Positions 13,506-19,090 are shown, counted from the stretch's first letter. The stretch: 31,197 nucleotides of DNA from Oligoflexia bacterium (GCA_903842755.1 CAIMNF010000509.1:1-31197), one strand, 5' to 3'. Numbers and translations are program-made. The notes: generated by a model from the letters alone, not told the origin.

Positions 13506-13829
13506 ATGAATTGTTCTACACATGAAAAACACGATCACATCCATGGCCCGAATTGCGGGCACCCAGCAGTAAAGCATTTAGACCATGTGGATTATTTGCA
13601 TGAAGGGCACCTTCATCACCTTCATCAAGGTCACATTGATGAACATGAGCTTGAAGCGTCTGAAAAAAATCCCACGACTTGCTCGCCCGTTGCATGCGGT
13701 GTCGATCATGCGAATAGTGAAAAAATTCCTCACGCTGGGCACTTTGATTACCTAGTAAATGGCCGACTTCACCATGCGCACGATGGCCATTGCGATGATC
13801 ATGGGCCAATTGCGCTTGCTACGAACTAA
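13506..13829 (+). CDS. Histidine-rich putative metal-binding protein (107 aa)
   Basis: ATG at 13506 behind an AGGAGA RBS (the track start at 13374 overlaps the upstream gene). 22 His and 5 Cys, with two HxxHxDYLxxGxLHHxHxGHxDxH repeats. Confidence 0.85.
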   Translation: MNCSTHEKHDHIHGPNCGHPAVKHLDHVDYLHEGHLHHLHQGHIDEHELEASEKNPTTCSPVACGVDHANSEKIPHAGHFDYLVNGRLHHAHDGHCDDHGPIALATN

Positions 13830-16255
13830 AGTTCTTTCGAGATTCGAGCAAAAATTTCTCTTCCAGCGGAGTAATGGTTCCCATTATAGCCGTTAGCGAC
13901 GTTGATGGGATAAAGATTATCTAAAATATTTAAGAGGTCGACCGATAGTTTTGTTTTGCTCCACCAAGATCCTTGGCTGAAATCGTAGCCAATACTGGTG
14001 TCAAACGTGAGGTGTGAGGGGAGGCTAAGTGTGTTGTTCGGACCGGTTCTTAAGCCGCTGCCGAATAAGGCTTCCCCTGTCCACCACCAGTGATCTGTCT
14101 TGTAGGTTACCCCGGAATTGGCGGTGTGCACCTGGACATGGTCCAAAAATTGATACCCGCCCGTGCTCGCGCTGGTTCCCGTAGGAAAAGAAAATAGTCC
14201 GCCGCTAATCCCGCTCCCTTTTGCAATTTCATATGAGTAATTGAAATAATCCGCCCATTTCTGATTTAATTTACCTTGTATCGAAAACTCAACGCCATAA
14301 GCGTATCCGTGTGAAAAGTTATACGGCTGAGCAATGGAAGTGTTTAACAGTTGGCTATCGTCCAACATGTTTTTTGCCAATTTTCCGTAAATATTTAGAT
14401 TCATGACTTGGTCATTCCATTGGTGCGAGGCGCCGACCTCGGCGTAATTGTCCTTTTCCGCTTTGATGTCGTAGGGGGCGAGAGCGTTGCCGGCTCCGAT
14501 GTTGACGAAGGTGTCGCGCAGGTTTTCGACAGGGGCAGGTTGAAAAGAAAGTCCGTAAAAGACGTGAAAAACAGTGTTTTCCGATGCTTTATAACTGAGC
14601 CCCAGTCGTGGTTGGAGCCACGAGTCTTGAGTAGTCACGTCTGAAAAATGGTATTGGGTAGCATCGAATCGTAATCCTGCGCTCAGGGTGAGCGTGTGGG
14701 TAAGTTTGTATTCGTCCTGAAGGTACACGCTTTCTAGATAGCCGGTGTCTTCATTATTGTCCGAGCTGTATACCGGCGCTTGTCCTTGCTCCTGCGAAAT
14801 CACGGAGATCGGGCCCGAGGAGTTGGATTGCTGGAGTTGAAACCCAGCCTTGATGAGGTGGGAATCATTCCATCGGTCCGAGAAGTCACCTTTAATTCCT
14901 TCATTCAGAGTGACGCGGTCTTCTGCAAAGCTAGAGGGATTACTGTTCGGAATTGCGCCGGCGTTTGCGGCGTAAAGGTCATTAGTGGGGTCATTCAACA
15001 CGTGAATCTTAGAGATTTTGAAATACGGGGCAAGTTGTAGAAAGGCATGGGGACTAAAACTGTGCTTCCATACGAGTTGAGAATACGCATTATTTTCGGC
15101 TTGAGCGTCGTTCGTGTTGTAGGGAACGTAATTCAGAGGGCCGTTTTGCCACGGATCGGAATAGCCCGAATTAAAAATGGGGCTTGTGGCGCTAAACGAA
15201 GCAGGGAAGTTTGGAATTTGGTAAAAGTTATATGAGTTATAAGTAATAAAAGAAAGTTTGTCTGTATTTCCCAATTGCCAGTCCAATTTAATGAACTCGT
15301 CGTTGCCATTGCTTTGATCATGGACGGCGTCCGAGGTCCCCTGGCTTGGATTGGCTAAGGATTGCGGCTGCGGCGTTTCTAGACCTCGGTCGGTTTGGGT
15401 GTAGCTCGCGGATAAAAAATAATGGAAGTTTCCCGCTGAGTTCGAACCGCTGTAGCTTCCCTGAGGCGTTAAGGTGTTGTAAGCGCCGTAGCCAATCCCC
15501 ACGGTTCCGCCAGGCGTTTCGGATCCGGATTTGGTGATGATGTTCACGACAGCCGAAAGGCGTTCGCCATATTCCGCTGGAATGCCGCCAGTGATGACTT
15601 CCATGTGATCAATGTTTCGAGGGCTAAAGGCTTGTCCAAAAGTGTTGGACGGAGAATCAGGCAGTTGTACCCCGTCAATTTGGTATTGAATGTTGGCATG
15701 ATTCCCACGAATGTAAGACTGACCAAAGGGACCTTGAATGATTCCTGGATTCGTCGTGGCTAATAACTTGGGAAGTTTAATATCGTCACCCTGGGGAAGG
15801 GCTTGAATGGTTTCTTTGTTGATTTCTCGGGTGCTGGAGGGCGCCGTTCCGCTGACCAGGTTTCTTTTGGCTTGAACTTTAACGGTCATGACGGGTTCAT
15901 CTGAACTTTGGTGGTTTTGCTTTAATTGAATTTTGAGCTCGGCATTGGCTCCGGACGCAATGTGGAGTGAAAAGCGATTGGGGTTGAAGTCATTTGCTTC
16001 GGTCACGACGGTGTAATTTCCAAAGTCCAGGGGGTAGGCCTCAAAGTCGCCAGCGGCGCCGGTCGTTTTCTCAAAGAGAGTGCTCCCGTTTTCGCTTAAA
16101 ATTTTTACGTGTGCACCGCCAACCGCAATTCCGTCTTGATCTAAAACCGTGCCGGAGACTGAGCCCGAAGTTCCCGCAACGGAAGCAGTTGAAAAAAAGT
16201 TCGCAAGAGTACACAGAACGAGGAAGCAAGCCTGGCTAAAAAATAGTTTTAACAT
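13826..16255 (-). CDS. TonB-dependent receptor with an N-terminal carboxypeptidase-regulatory-like domain
   Basis: Signal peptide, then GSVSGTVLDQDG...GAHV, a plug (YQIDGV...EVITGGIPAEYG...VVNIITKSG), and barrel strands ending DLLNILDN...GREIFARISKEL. Confidence 0.93.
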   Translation of the reverse strand: MLKLFFSQACFLVLCTLANFFSTASVAGTSGSVSGTVLDQDGIAVGGAHVKILSENGSTLFEKTTGAAGDFEAYPLDFGNYTVVTEANDFNPNRFSLHIASGANAELKIQLKQNHQSSDEPVMTVKVQAKRNLVSGTAPSSTREINKETIQALPQGDDIKLPKLLATTNPGIIQGPFGQSYIRGNHANIQYQIDGVQLPDSPSNTFGQAFSPRNIDHMEVITGGIPAEYGERLSAVVNIITKSGSETPGGTVGIGYGAYNTLTPQGSYSGSNSAGNFHYFLSASYTQTDRGLETPQPQSLANPSQGTSDAVHDQSNGNDEFIKLDWQLGNTDKLSFITYNSYNFYQIPNFPASFSATSPIFNSGYSDPWQNGPLNYVPYNTNDAQAENNAYSQLVWKHSFSPHAFLQLAPYFKISKIHVLNDPTNDLYAANAGAIPNSNPSSFAEDRVTLNEGIKGDFSDRWNDSHLIKAGFQLQQSNSSGPISVISQEQGQAPVYSSDNNEDTGYLESVYLQDEYKLTHTLTLSAGLRFDATQYHFSDVTTQDSWLQPRLGLSYKASENTVFHVFYGLSFQPAPVENLRDTFVNIGAGNALAPYDIKAEKDNYAEVGASHQWNDQVMNLNIYGKLAKNMLDDSQLLNTSIAQPYNFSHGYAYGVEFSIQGKLNQKWADYFNYSYEIAKGSGISGGLFSFPTGTSASTGGYQFLDHVQVHTANSGVTYKTDHWWWTGEALFGSGLRTGPNNTLSLPSHLTFDTSIGYDFSQGSWWSKTKLSVDLLNILDNLYPINVANGYNGNHYSAGREIFARISKEL

Positions 16256-16311
16256 TGGATAAACGCTAAGTTAACCAGAAAAGGCTGGCAATGAAAATGC
16301 AATTGAATTGA

Positions 16312-16995
16312 GTGGAGAAAAGTCCTACTCTGTGGGCTATGCAAACCATAGAGTCTTTTTTTGAACTCATCAAACATGGCGGTTTGATGATGGTGCCGCT
16401 TTTAATTTCTGCTTTTATTGGATTGACGATCATTTTTGAGCGCGGATACATGCTGAAAAAAACCTTTTTTTTACCGGAAAATATTAAAGAAAAGCTGAGA
16501 GCGGACTTGAGTGCCTCCAACAGAGGCGATCGCCAAGCATTAGTAGTTCAGGCTAAAGAGATTGCAAAGGTGCACGCGCGTTCCCCGGTCGCTCAAGTGG
16601 TCCGCATCGGATTAGAAAACGTTGCTGCAGCGCCAGAAGACGTAGAGCGACTGATGGCAAATGAAGCCCAGCGATGGATTCCGTTACTGGAAAAGCGGTT
16701 AGAAATTCTAGACACTATTATTACTGCAGCGCCGCTCATGGGCCTGCTGGGAACCATTACCGGAATGATGGCGTCTTTCAAAGTGTTGTCCGAAAAAGGA
16801 GTGAATGAGCCTAATGCAATTACGGGCGGTGTGGCCGAAGCCCTGATCGCAACCGCCACGGGGCTAGTGATCGCGCTGATTTGTCTGCTTGCTTATAATT
16901 ACTTTAGCGCCGTCGTGAAAGAGTATATCACCTCCATGGAAGAAATGGCGAACCTTTTGCTTGAGGCAAAAGGGGGCAAAAGAAATGAAAATTAA
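16312..16995 (+). CDS. exbB: MotA/TolQ/ExbB proton channel protein (likely start at ATG 16339)
   Basis: GGLMMVPL, APLMGLLGTITGMM and GGVAEALIATATGL. First gene of the exbB-exbD-tonB run. Confidence 0.93.
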   Translation: MEKSPTLWAMQTIESFFELIKHGGLMMVPLLISAFIGLTIIFERGYMLKKTFFLPENIKEKLRADLSASNRGDRQALVVQAKEIAKVHARSPVAQVVRIGLENVAAAPEDVERLMANEAQRWIPLLEKRLEILDTIITAAPLMGLLGTITGMMASFKVLSEKGVNEPNAITGGVAEALIATATGLVIALICLLAYNYFSAVVKEYITSMEEMANLLLEAKGGKRNEN

Positions 16996-17389
16996 GCGTC
17001 CTCCTTTAAAAAAACCGCGAATTGAAATCATTCCCATGATCGACGTCATTTTTTTTCTGTTGGTATTTTTTATGGTGTCGTCGCTCGCGCATGAAAAGTT
17101 TAATGGGATGCCGGTGAATTTACCGAAAACTTCTTCTGCTCCGCAGGCGGTCGTTCAGAAAATTACGCTTTCGATTGAAGCTTCGGGCGATCTTTACTTA
17201 AATAAGAGCAAAGTAAGTTTGGCTAGTTTGGCAGACACCTTGGCGCATCTGATGGCAGCGACTCCCGACGAAACGGTGATCGTGAACGCGGATAAGAACG
17301 CGAATTATGGGCTGGTGATGGCGGCCATGGATCAAGCAAAAAAAATTGGAGTGAGAAAGTTTGCGCTCTTGTCTCATTTTGAAAAATGA
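16985..17389 (+). CDS. exbD: Biopolymer transporter ExbD
   Basis: IEIIPMIDVIFFLLVFFM, VNLPK and VIVNADKNANYG. ATG at 16985 overlaps the end of exbB. Confidence 0.93.
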   Translation: MKIKRPPLKKPRIEIIPMIDVIFFLLVFFMVSSLAHEKFNGMPVNLPKTSSAPQAVVQKITLSIEASGDLYLNKSKVSLASLADTLAHLMAATPDETVIVNADKNANYGLVMAAMDQAKKIGVRKFALLSHFEK

Positions 17390-17982
17390 GTCAGGCCTGG
17401 AGAGTAGAGAGCGGTAGCCGGAACTTGTATTACGCTGCCTTTTTTGCAGCGTCGCTGGAGCTTGGGTTGATTGCCCTGACCGGTGTGAAGTTTCATTTTC
17501 GGCAATCGGAGCCCTCTGTATCCCCCGTGACCCTTGAATCGGAAGTTGTGGTTATTCCAGAAGAACACCCTAAGCTAAGGTCTCAAACCGCACTTCCCCC
17601 AGTTCCGGAAGAAGCGCTGAGTAACTCTTCCCAGGTCAAGCCCAATGCGAGTCCGTCTAAATCTTTAGATGCTCCGAATACGAATCAAATTCAACATGGT
17701 AAGCCTTTAGCAGGGTCGCACGGGCCAGTTTTAATAGAATCTCCAGCGCCGGTTATCCCGGACTATTTAAAAGACAAAGAGATTAATGCCAAAGTCATTA
17801 TCGAGTTTACGGTACTCAAGGATGGAAGGGTATCGCCCCGCCTTTTAGTTTCGAGTGGGAATGAGGAGCTTGATCAAATCGCGATTGGTGCGGCTTCGCG
17901 CTGGAAGTTTTATCCGGCAGAATCGGAGCATCAAGCGATCGATGCAAAAGTAAAATTGCGGATTGTCTTTGAAGTTAAGTAA
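17386..17982 (+). CDS. tonB: Energy transducer TonB
   Basis: Single N-terminal TM helix, Pro-rich linker, and a TonB C-terminal domain (VIIEFTV..DGRV...SSG.EELD..A..A.RWKFYPA). ATGA overlap with exbD. Confidence 0.88.
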   Translation: MSQAWRVESGSRNLYYAAFFAASLELGLIALTGVKFHFRQSEPSVSPVTLESEVVVIPEEHPKLRSQTALPPVPEEALSNSSQVKPNASPSKSLDAPNTNQIQHGKPLAGSHGPVLIESPAPVIPDYLKDKEINAKVIIEFTVLKDGRVSPRLLVSSGNEELDQIAIGAASRWKFYPAESEHQAIDAKVKLRIVFEVK

Positions 17983-18739
17983 ATTTTAAAAATACCTGGG
18001 TCATACAGAGTCCAACCGCAATCCAAGTCAGTGCATGTTTGCGGCTGCGGCTGGAATGAAAGCTGGGCAATAAAAAATCAAAAATGAGGCAACCCAACAG
18101 GGTGCCTGCCGCAAGACTGGTGACAAGAAAAGCAATGTTTTCCGTCACTGATTTTTTGAATAGCAAGGTCAGGAGCACGCCCAGGGGCATGGAAATGGAG
18201 TAGAGGCTGATCGCAATGAAAAACGATTTAGGGCTAGTCTTTTTCTCAAGCAAAACGGAAGAAACCGTCAAGGACTCGTATGCTTTATGCGCGAAGAGTG
18301 CCCAAAATAGGGTTTTGGTAATGGAGCCTGCGTATCCCTCCGAGATGACCAACAGCATGCCGCTGGCCAGACAATGGGCGAACATCGAGGCCATAAAAAA
18401 TGAAATGCTTTGGCCGTGCGAATGTCCGAAAGAGTTTTCGATCGATTCCGCTATTGAGGAATGACTCAAAGGTTTGTGATATTTAAGATGGTACAGATGG
18501 AGAAGTGAGTAAAGGAGCCAGACGGCTGCTACTCCCCAAAGCGTGTGTATTCCACCCATTTCGAATAAGTCCGGAATTAAATCAAAAAAAAGAATTCCCG
18601 CTAGCGCTCCCGTGCCTAAAAGGTAGAAAAACTTAGAGTATCTTCTTAAGTTCTGGATATAGAACGGCAAAATGCAGAGACTCATCATGGATATCGAGAT
18701 CAGCGCGGTTTCGGTTAATATGCTCATCGGTGAGCGCAT
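17975..18739 (-). CDS. ZIP family divalent metal transporter
   Basis: About 8 hydrophobic segments, a His-rich loop (HLYHLKYH...GHSHG), and AHCLASG and AHKAYES in the TM4/TM5 positions. Start is uncertain (18727, 18739 or 18766). Confidence 0.8.
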   Translation of the reverse strand: MRSPMSILTETALISISMMSLCILPFYIQNLRRYSKFFYLLGTGALAGILFFDLIPDLFEMGGIHTLWGVAAVWLLYSLLHLYHLKYHKPLSHSSIAESIENSFGHSHGQSISFFMASMFAHCLASGMLLVISEGYAGSITKTLFWALFAHKAYESLTVSSVLLEKKTSPKSFFIAISLYSISMPLGVLLTLLFKKSVTENIAFLVTSLAAGTLLGCLIFDFLLPSFHSSRSRKHALTWIAVGLCMTQVFLKFT

Positions 18740-18832
18740 TTTAAACGGATTTGGTCCAATTTGCAATCAATATCAAATCAACATAGCGAATAAGACTTGT
18801 GTTTTTCCGCCGAATTTTGTACGACCGGCACC

Positions 18833-19090
18833 ATGAAAAATACAGTAAAAAAATGGATACTCACTTTCGGATTTTCGATGATTTTGGGTGCCTGCGGATC
18901 TAGTGACTCCACAAATAAGAGCTACCACTTAACTTCAAACGGCTGTGATACCGGAACTCACAACTTCAACGATCTAGACGCTTATTGCAAGGGATTGGAA
19001 AACGATCAATTGAATAACGATTGTGCTTTAGATTTGCGTTCTCAGGATTTCACATCCAATGGGTGCCCGGGGACATTTACACCGTTTTAA
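18833..19090 (+). CDS. Small Cys-containing lipoprotein (85 aa)
   Basis: Lipobox LGAC, four further Cys, and TSNGC occurring twice. Confidence 0.75.
   Translation: MKNTVKKWILTFGFSMILGACGSSDSTNKSYHLTSNGCDTGTHNFNDLDAYCKGLENDQLNNDCALDLRSQDFTSNGCPGTFTPF

Follow-up and report, generated by a model that had tools for sequence, protein, structure and literature searches.

A probable zinc-type island joining a TonB-dependent receptor, its own ExbB-ExbD-TonB set and a ZIP permease in an Oligoflexia bacterium

Results

Gene layout of the island

The window, by which we mean the whole stretch of DNA analyzed, is 31,197 nucleotides long (Oligoflexia bacterium, GCA_903842755.1, CAIMNF010000509.1:1-31197) and constitutes contig C509; the genome measures 3.4 Mb in 615 contigs, with a completeness of 97%, and the public genomes closest to it are Oligoflexia/Bdellovibrionota MAGs (metagenome-assembled genomes). 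Between positions 13506 and 18739 it holds a candidate metal-uptake island in the order His/Cys-rich 107-aa protein (+), TonB-dependent receptor (TBDR, -), exbB-exbD-tonB (+) and short ZIP permease (-), as read from the listing and translation of open reading frames (ORFs). All six genes are present with open reading frames, and five of them (all but the His-rich ORF) scored over the Pfam curated cut-offs. This layout had been proposed in a preliminary description of the DNA, and ORF translation and Pfam confirmed it with slight corrections of the start codons. The features are as follows.

13506..13829, + strand: His/Cys-rich protein, 107 aa, predicted cytoplasmic, two repeats (translation; no Pfam or NCBIfam match)
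13826..16255, - strand: TBDR, 809 aa, with signal peptide, CarboxypepD_reg domain, TonB-box-like MTVKVQA, plug and barrel (Pfam)
16297..16313, no strand: operator-like site ATGCAATTGAATTGAGT, a 12/16 match to ATGCAAAT-N-ATTTGCAT, in the TBDR-exbB gap
16339..16995, + strand: ExbB (PF01618, 115.7 bits), alternative GTG start at 16312
16985..17389, + strand: ExbD (PF02472, 105.2 bits), alternative TTG start at 16961
17386..17982, + strand: TonB (PF03544, 47 bits), with N-terminal membrane anchor, Pro-rich linker and TonB_C domain
17975..18727, - strand: short ZIP permease, 250 aa (254 aa from 18739) (PF02535, 42.5 versus 35.1 bits)
18738..18766, - strand: promoter-like TTGCAA-17-TAAAAT directly upstream of the ZIP gene (consensus match alone)

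The two outer gene pairs overlap tail-to-tail, the His-rich gene (13506-13829) with the TBDR gene (13826-16255) by 4 bp and tonB (17386-17982) with the ZIP gene (17975-18727/18739) by 8 bp. Between the divergent TBDR and exbB genes lie 83 bp if exbB begins with the ATG at 16339, the start that matches the ExbB of a congener in alignment, or 56 bp if it begins with the GTG at 16312; the ExbD start at 16985 and the ZIP start at 18727 were likewise preferred from alignment with relatives. No terminator-like hairpin was found at either convergent junction of the island. The overlaps, a gap below 90 bp and the missing terminators had all been described before and were reproduced here. Within the TonB set, exbB and exbD overlap by 11 bp and exbD and tonB by 4 bp. 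The region contained no short inverted repeats of at least 14 nt and no cobalamin or NiCo riboswitch that could provide an alternative control, and promoter-like consensus matches in it were no commoner than in shuffled controls.

The preliminary description had further stated that siderophore and ABC genes are missing nearby and had inferred that ZIP is used rather than ZnuABC. In agreement with this, no ABC-transporter or siderophore-synthesis Pfam match was found among the scanned window ORFs (most of those of at least 90 aa), and a profile search of the genome, in six frames for ZIP, detected no ZnuA and a single ZIP gene. Eight flanking ORFs of the window had no Pfam match of any kind.

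The ExbB, ExbD and TonB proteins all score over their cut-offs, and ExbB and ExbD are 60% and 75% identical to the proteins beside the TBDR of the congener (genome G003), while the ExbB and TolQ equivalogs were not separated by NCBIfam scores. The genome has four TonB_C genes and only two or three receptors.

The receptor, the TonB set and the ZIP gene are linked in relatives

We read 26 TBDR ortholog loci, of which 23 came from a scan of species-representative genomes and three were fetched from related genomes. Beside the receptor lay exbB-exbD-tonB in 12 loci, a Fur-family gene in three, a gene of the ZIP subfamily in three, a CDF gene in two and the His-rich gene in two; in one of the three ZIP-adjacent loci the ZIP gene is cut by an insertion sequence. 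In the phylum sample of 401 genomes, the TBDR was found in 17 genomes, the ZIP subfamily in 17 and both in six, and in five of these six, which belong to three genera, the two genes lie within 2.1 kb. A TBDR was also present in three of the four metagenome ZIP contexts. Taken together, these counts support a more than chance linkage between the receptor, the TonB complex encoded beside it and the ZIP gene. Of the five-part neighborhood suggested earlier, the linkage of these three elements thus held, while the symmetric layout with the His-rich gene is unique to the window: apart from it, the His-rich gene stands near the TBDR in just one of the ortholog loci (L016).

The genes that surround this unit in relatives, for a Fur-family regulator, a P1B ATPase and a CDF, all concern transition metals. 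In the congener G003 the order is ZIP (-), Fur-family regulator (+), TBDR (-) and exbB-exbD-tonB (+), with the regulator convergent to the TBDR gene in the slot that the His-rich gene takes in the window. Three of the four ZIP contexts show a fuller island, which reads FUR / ZIP - P1B ATPase - 107-aa membrane protein - (CDF) - TBDR / ExbB-ExbD-TonB, and some of these islands carry a second Fur paralogue. The P1B ATPase of these islands scores above the cut-off of TIGR01512, a model for the Cd/Zn type; it contains CPC, and an HMA_2-like domain bearing a His-rich tail forms its N terminus. What related Oligoflexia/Bdellovibrionota conserve is the set of a Fur-family regulator, the TBDR, ExbB-ExbD-TonB and the ZIP subfamily, often joined by the P1B ATPase and CDF. 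The earlier view of a self-contained island does not hold, as the regulator, ATPase and CDF of the fuller versions are missing here.

Several observations concern the state of these islands. The P1B ATPase of L141 (8701-11043) and L142 (8718-10982) combines CPC in the fourth helix with an unusual ...AAIVHNAST... in the last helix, a combination that could not be matched to known P1B subgroups. In the congener, a 117-aa HMA_2-like ORF with a His-rich tail (L010 6236-6589, G003 contig C314) follows the ZIP gene as the stranded N-terminal domain of the P1B ATPase of the fuller islands, and the island is decaying in G003 too. In a Bdellovibrionales MAG, at L029 2897-3910, the ZIP beside the TBDR and Fur-family genes is reduced to its last 75 residues and is followed by a DDE transposase fragment.

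Within the genus, the TBDR was found in two of the 17 genomes searched, and the loci of the two congeners have no flanking gene in common, so that we regard the unit as an accessory island. On balance, we favor the reading that the window carries a reduced, rearranged copy of an accessory island for transition-metal acquisition and homeostasis, of the zinc type, from which the regulator, ATPase and CDF are absent.

The same facts could be taken for a leftover juxtaposition, in which the TBDR and TonB set import a non-metal and the His-rich gene, perhaps also the ZIP gene, was placed beside them by rearrangement. Some CarboxypepD_reg-type receptors do import non-metal substrates, the receptor belongs to no curated subfamily, and with the query set used 14 of the 26 ortholog loci showed no metal gene. 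The unique layout, the loss of the regulator, the position of the ZIP gene on the other side of the cluster than in the congener, the scarcity of the TBDR in the genus and the lack of common flanking genes would also fit. However, TBDR-ZIP adjacency recurs in three genera and on three metagenome contigs with differing gene orders, a pattern that speaks for selection keeping the two together; pairs of a His-rich gene and a TBDR are seen again with distant TBDRs (L167, L183 and L200); and in relatives the operator described below stands ahead of the TBDR/exbB genes and also ahead of ZIP. We consider a mere juxtaposition quite unlikely.

The receptor belongs to no curated subfamily

In the receptor, an N-terminal CarboxypepD_reg domain precedes a plug (PF07715, 32.9 versus 23.9 bits) and a barrel (PF00593, 93.2 versus 27 bits). 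At aa 123-129 is the sequence MTVKVQA, which resembles the TonB-box consensus and whose V127 is nearly invariant in the family. Orthologues with 48-79% identity occur in Oligoflexia MAGs. Among more distant relatives (27-33% identity), one is divergent from znuABC (L044) and two lie beside COG0523 and the His-rich gene (L167 and L200); in L200, the convergent His/TBDR arrangement is identical to that of the window.

When the receptor was compared with known ones, as the preliminary description had called for, no kinship with ZnuD emerged: phmmer against PDB chains gave no match at E<=0.001, and ZnuD was not among the 50 best Foldseek rows. Nor was any curated siderophore-type class reached. 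The curated NCBIfam TBDR subfamilies (siderophore, haem/transferrin, B12, PqqU and others) gave 13 matches, all far under their cut-offs, the best being TIGR01783 with 83.7 versus 223.5 bits. By Foldseek the receptor matched many solved TBDRs with a probability of 1.00 and 11-15% identity to all of them, which indicates the generic fold only and does not place the receptor by substrate. The His clusters expected in the predicted structure could not be demonstrated in a model with a mean pLDDT of 63 and a plug below 50, too poor to seek such clusters or a metal site; in the sequence, 21 His residues are spread over the 809 aa with no run or His-rich loop.

Outer-membrane barrels usually end in an aromatic last residue. 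In this receptor family the C terminus is a conserved ...KEL instead (window 13826-13840, orthologue alignment). In L011 (8464-8859) and L030 (5010-5405) the TBDR orthologue is directly preceded by a HiPIP (high-potential iron-sulfur protein) gene, after which comes a gene for an 800-aa membrane protein without a Pfam match. The genome also encodes a second TBDR paralogue, a fragment, at the end of a 1.6-kb contig (C186, L007, 3-512), 47% identical over the last 169 residues. Two small overlapping ORFs on the opposite strand follow it (772-1330), which by their sequence may be read as a toxin-antitoxin-like pair rather than as metal genes.

The ZIP permease and its subfamily

The ZIP protein is similar to the ZupT/ZIP family (PF02535) in its size of about 250 aa, in a Pfam match over the cut-off, in a His-rich cytoplasmic loop (HLYHLKYHKPLSHS...GHSHG) and in having relatives that are automatically annotated as ZupT. 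It differs in that the Pfam match covers residues 117-253 only, the C-terminal half (36.5 bits in the six-frame search), that it did not reach the NCBIfam model TIGR00820, and that no solved ZIP relative aligned in a sequence search against the PDB. The core motif of ZupT is of the HNxPEG type; the core helices here read FAHCLASG and FAHKAYES, which are kept within the subfamily and appear to differ from the motifs of ZupT and BbZIP. A further difference is that this subfamily often adjoins a TBDR. It comprises 83 clusters, and all those with a named organism come from Bdellovibrionota-type MAGs.

A small ORF divergent from ZIP (18833-19090, +) predicts a protein with a lipoprotein-type signal (ILGAC) and, once mature, five Cys; Pfam gave no match for it, and the ORF could be either part of the island or unrelated.

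The His/Cys-rich protein represents a widespread family

The 107-aa protein contains 22 His and 5 Cys and matched none of the Pfam or NCBIfam models. We take its ORF to be a real gene because AGGAG lies 8 nt ahead of the ATG and more than 970 homologue clusters exist (974 at 90% identity). The family occurs on at least 564 metagenome stretches and spans Bacillota to Pseudomonadota, with about 55% identity across phyla. Its alignment has 27 invariant columns, chiefly His, Cys and Asp, over two repeats. An AlphaFold2 model of the window protein (pLDDT 87.4) is all-beta with 2 x 4 strands, and a Foldseek search of the PDB with this model returned no match. The matches in the ESM Atlas were clusters labeled 'threonine dehydratase', a name that many members of the family now wrongly bear, and half-length ones in ZnuB-like ABC-3 permeases. 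The literature search found the known Zur/TBDR background and no description of this family.

Within the phylum, the 48-residue His/Cys repeat is found mostly in single-repeat or differently arranged small proteins (L119, L121-L124, L129, L136 and others), and the two-repeat form is rare (three of 401 genomes). This distribution, with the single-repeat and other arrangements the commoner ones, suggests that the repeat acts as an independent domain.

Several gene contexts of the homologues lean towards zinc. The homologue nearest in sequence (66% identity) is flanked by a Fur-family gene and a convergent ZIP gene and lies about 2.4 kb downstream of ZnuA/ZnuC/ZnuB, and a Planococcus homologue adjoins COG0523 with a gene for a FolE2-type GTP cyclohydrolase about 6 kb off. 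Single-repeat forms within the phylum adjoin ZnuABC, or ZIP, or a regulator of the cluster type together with a DmeF-like CDF. In 80 metagenome loci the most frequent neighbors were ArsR (15) and COG0523 (eight), ahead of Fur (five), TBDR (three) and ZnuBC (two). The ArsR regulator is located directly upstream of the His-rich gene in these 15 loci, and 13 of 14 such regulators carry DxHx10Hx2(E/H), which is described as the canonical alpha5 site for sensing Zn(II) (PMC11672702). The His-rich gene of the window has neither an ArsR nor a COG0523 neighbor.

As to function, the protein may serve as a metal buffer, store or hand-over protein, which is in line with the preliminary description. By its gene contexts the family is tied in some lineages to sensors of zinc excess (alpha5 ArsR/SmtB) and in others to modules for zinc starvation (COG0523, ZnuABC, ZIP and TBDR). 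More tentatively, and with somewhat less confidence than doubt, we suggest that it is a widespread, undescribed class of cytoplasmic zinc-buffering or hand-over proteins, a His-based counterpart of metallothionein.

His-rich proteins are also the classic nickel binders, and the alpha5 site of ArsR sensors serves some Co/Ni sensors as well. These facts raise the alternative that the TBDR imports cobalt, nickel or a chelate of either, that ZIP passes it inward and that the His-rich protein is comparable to binders of the Hpn/RcnB type. In L016 the regulator and the His-rich gene flank a CDF that scores above the cut-off of the DmeF equivalog model for Co/Ni efflux (347 versus 250 bits), and a 47%-identical CDF lies beside the same type of regulator and a single-repeat His protein in L122. 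Against this, the COG0523 and ZnuABC neighbors point to zinc, the ATPase of the fuller islands passes a Cd/Zn-type model, and none of the copies showed nik, cbi, urease or hydrogenase genes or a NiCo or cobalamin riboswitch in its vicinity. Cobalt or nickel is thus an unlikely substrate.

A palindromic operator is shared by the regulator-bearing loci

The promoter gaps of the regulator-bearing loci have in common a palindrome, ATGCAAAT-N-ATTTGCAT. It is of the 7-1-7 type that is typical of Fur-family boxes and is perfect over 10-1-10 in L016. Sites were scored as matches out of 16, and scores of at least 12 occurred 316 times in 3.42 million positions of the genome (9e-5 per position). In L141 and L142, which were not used in deriving the motif, ten sites were found where about 0.2 were expected. 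Sites scoring 12-14 are located in the exbB/TBDR, fur/ZIP and CDF/tonB gaps of L141 and in the fur/ZIP and TBDR/fur2 gaps of L142; others in this range were found in L015 (exbB/TBDR and fur/ZIP), L016 (exbB/TBDR and fur/dmeF) and L122 (one site).

The window has a single 12/16 site, at 16297-16313 and 26 nt before the exbB ATG, where about 0.008 sites were expected by chance in the 83-bp gap and about 0.03 over the three gaps examined. No site precedes the His-rich gene or the ZIP gene. A genome-wide search of this genome and of the congener yielded no informative regulon, as the best matches fell inside genes or by a transposase, a sugar kinase and a dehydrogenase, and the operator seems local to the island. 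The genome encodes one Fur-family protein, of another type (27% identity), and none of the cluster regulators, while the congener has two Fur-family genes.

In NCBIfam and PDB sequence searches, the Fur, Zur and PerR scores of the cluster regulators were close together and all far below the equivalog cut-offs, and the Zur proteins of M. tuberculosis and S. coelicolor scored nearly as high as Fur. With scores so close and so low, an assignment of the regulator class as Zur or Fur was dropped.

The best partial NCBIfam and PDB matches of these regulators are nevertheless to Fur, and this brings up a different metal for the same architecture: ferrous iron or manganese under Fur/Mur/PerR-like regulators, with ZIP importing Fe(II) or Mn(II), an ability that ZupT has, and with excess iron leaving the cell through the P1B ATPase and CDF in the relatives. 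Two ferritins, Bfd and a haem-type receptor lie directly beside the regulator in L142, and the HiPIP genes of L011 and L030 are compatible with this too. However, the regulator scores are far below the cut-offs and nearly matched by the two Zur proteins, the His-rich contexts that were read hold no iron gene, their metal genes being ZnuABC, COG0523 and alpha5-ArsR, and a TBDR relative lies beside znuABC. In addition, SPC marks the Fe/Co-type P1B pumps, and the ATPase of the fuller islands has a CPC motif instead. We regard iron or manganese as rather improbable.

Discussion

The TBDR of the window belongs with its own TonB complex and a ZIP gene to a unit that recurs in related Oligoflexia/Bdellovibrionota, and we favor a zinc-type metal as its substrate, if by no wide measure of confidence. 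This leaning comes from gene context: the zinc-type neighbors of the His-rich homologues, znuABC (L044) or COG0523 (L167 and L200) near distant TBDR relatives, the Cd/Zn-type match of the P1B ATPase in the fuller islands, the single ZIP gene and the absence of a detected ZnuA. The earlier proposal of Zn, Ni or Co rather than a ferric siderophore is narrowed in this way to zinc as the favored metal, with nickel and cobalt kept as less likely rivals.

A number of points weigh against this interpretation. The exact five-gene layout was found nowhere else, and the His-rich gene accompanies the TBDR in one other of the 26 loci; ZIP is adjacent in only five of the 17 TBDR-bearing genomes of the phylum sample, and of the full-length His-rich homologues whose surroundings were read in detail, about half lie near no metal gene. 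At the protein level, the HCLASG and HKAYES motifs of the ZIP core appear to diverge from the canonical ones, and the TBDR has no His-rich loop, while its poor model left no metal site to inspect. The metal itself is put in question by the ferritin, Bfd and haem-like receptor next to the island in L142, by the HiPIP genes of two loci and by the DmeF-type Co/Ni CDF in two relatives. With respect to control, the cluster regulators score higher on Fur than on Zur models, all under the cut-offs, and the only Fur-family gene of this genome is of another type, so metal-responsive regulation here is putative.

Observed here are the gene content, the conserved association of the receptor with the TonB genes and ZIP, the operator of the relatives and the zinc-gene contexts of the His-rich family. 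Which metal is carried and in which direction, what the His-rich protein does and any regulation in this genome are inferred, and we hypothesize the following route. The receptor, energized by the adjacent ExbB-ExbD-TonB, would bring a scarce divalent metal, most likely zinc, across the outer membrane as the free ion or a small chelate. The adjacent short ZIP permease would then carry it across the inner membrane; since no ZnuA-type binding protein was detected in the genome, ZIP would be the main inner-membrane route. In the cytoplasm, the two-repeat beta protein may bind the metal and thereby buffer it, store it or hand it over. In the fuller islands, an embedded Fur-family repressor would be expected to act on the palindromic operator in every promoter gap, and the CPC-type P1B ATPase and the CDF would provide the opposite flux, coordinated with uptake by the regulator. 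The window lacks the regulator, ATPase and CDF and keeps one weak copy of the operator.

If this scheme is correct, the His-rich protein is where a line of import through TBDR and ZIP, in place of ZnuABC, ends in the cytoplasm, and should it bind zinc, it would fill a gap in the zinc buffering of bacteria that do not have Cys-type metallothioneins. The most useful lead is this family rather than the symmetry of the island: it is conserved across phyla and has a confidently predicted fold, with no family model or structure. The receptor clade is of interest in its own right, as few receptors whose part in outer-membrane zinc uptake is understood exist (ZnuD and ZnuK/L), and in this clade a TBDR and its dedicated TonB set are repeatedly found coupled to ZIP rather than to an ABC importer. 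The fuller islands, for their part, offer a compact local regulon of regulator, operator, importer, P1B ATPase and CDF.

Comparison with known systems

Metal-scavenging TBDRs under Fur-family control are already known, and in Acinetobacter a tonB-exbB-exbD set is regulated by Zur; the present locus differs in the receptor clade, the recurrent ZIP partner, the sequence of the operator and the His-rich protein. The islands resemble the Zur-regulated receptor systems of Neisseria (ZnuD) and Caulobacter (ZnuK/ZnuL/ZnuM) in pairing a TBDR that would scavenge a divalent metal with a regulator of the Fur family and its palindromic operator. The Zur protein of Caulobacter acts as a repressor of TBDR and uptake genes and as an activator of a P-type ATPase gene (PMC4176598). 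In contrast to ZnuD, the present receptor has an extra N-terminal CarboxypepD_reg domain and no sequence kinship detectable by phmmer against the PDB or among the top 50 Foldseek rows; the inner-membrane partner is ZIP and not ZnuABC or ZnuGHI; the operator is unlike the Caulobacter Zur boxes (PMC4176598); and the window contains no such regulator.

The His-rich family has parallels of its own. Its members are commonly found behind an ArsR/SmtB-type regulator with the alpha5 motif, just as smtA stands behind smtB, and some adjoin COG0523 genes, as in COG0523 zinc-chaperone neighborhoods. It differs from the metallothionein SmtA in being dominated by His over Cys and in being predicted to fold as a two-repeat beta protein rather than a Cys cluster.

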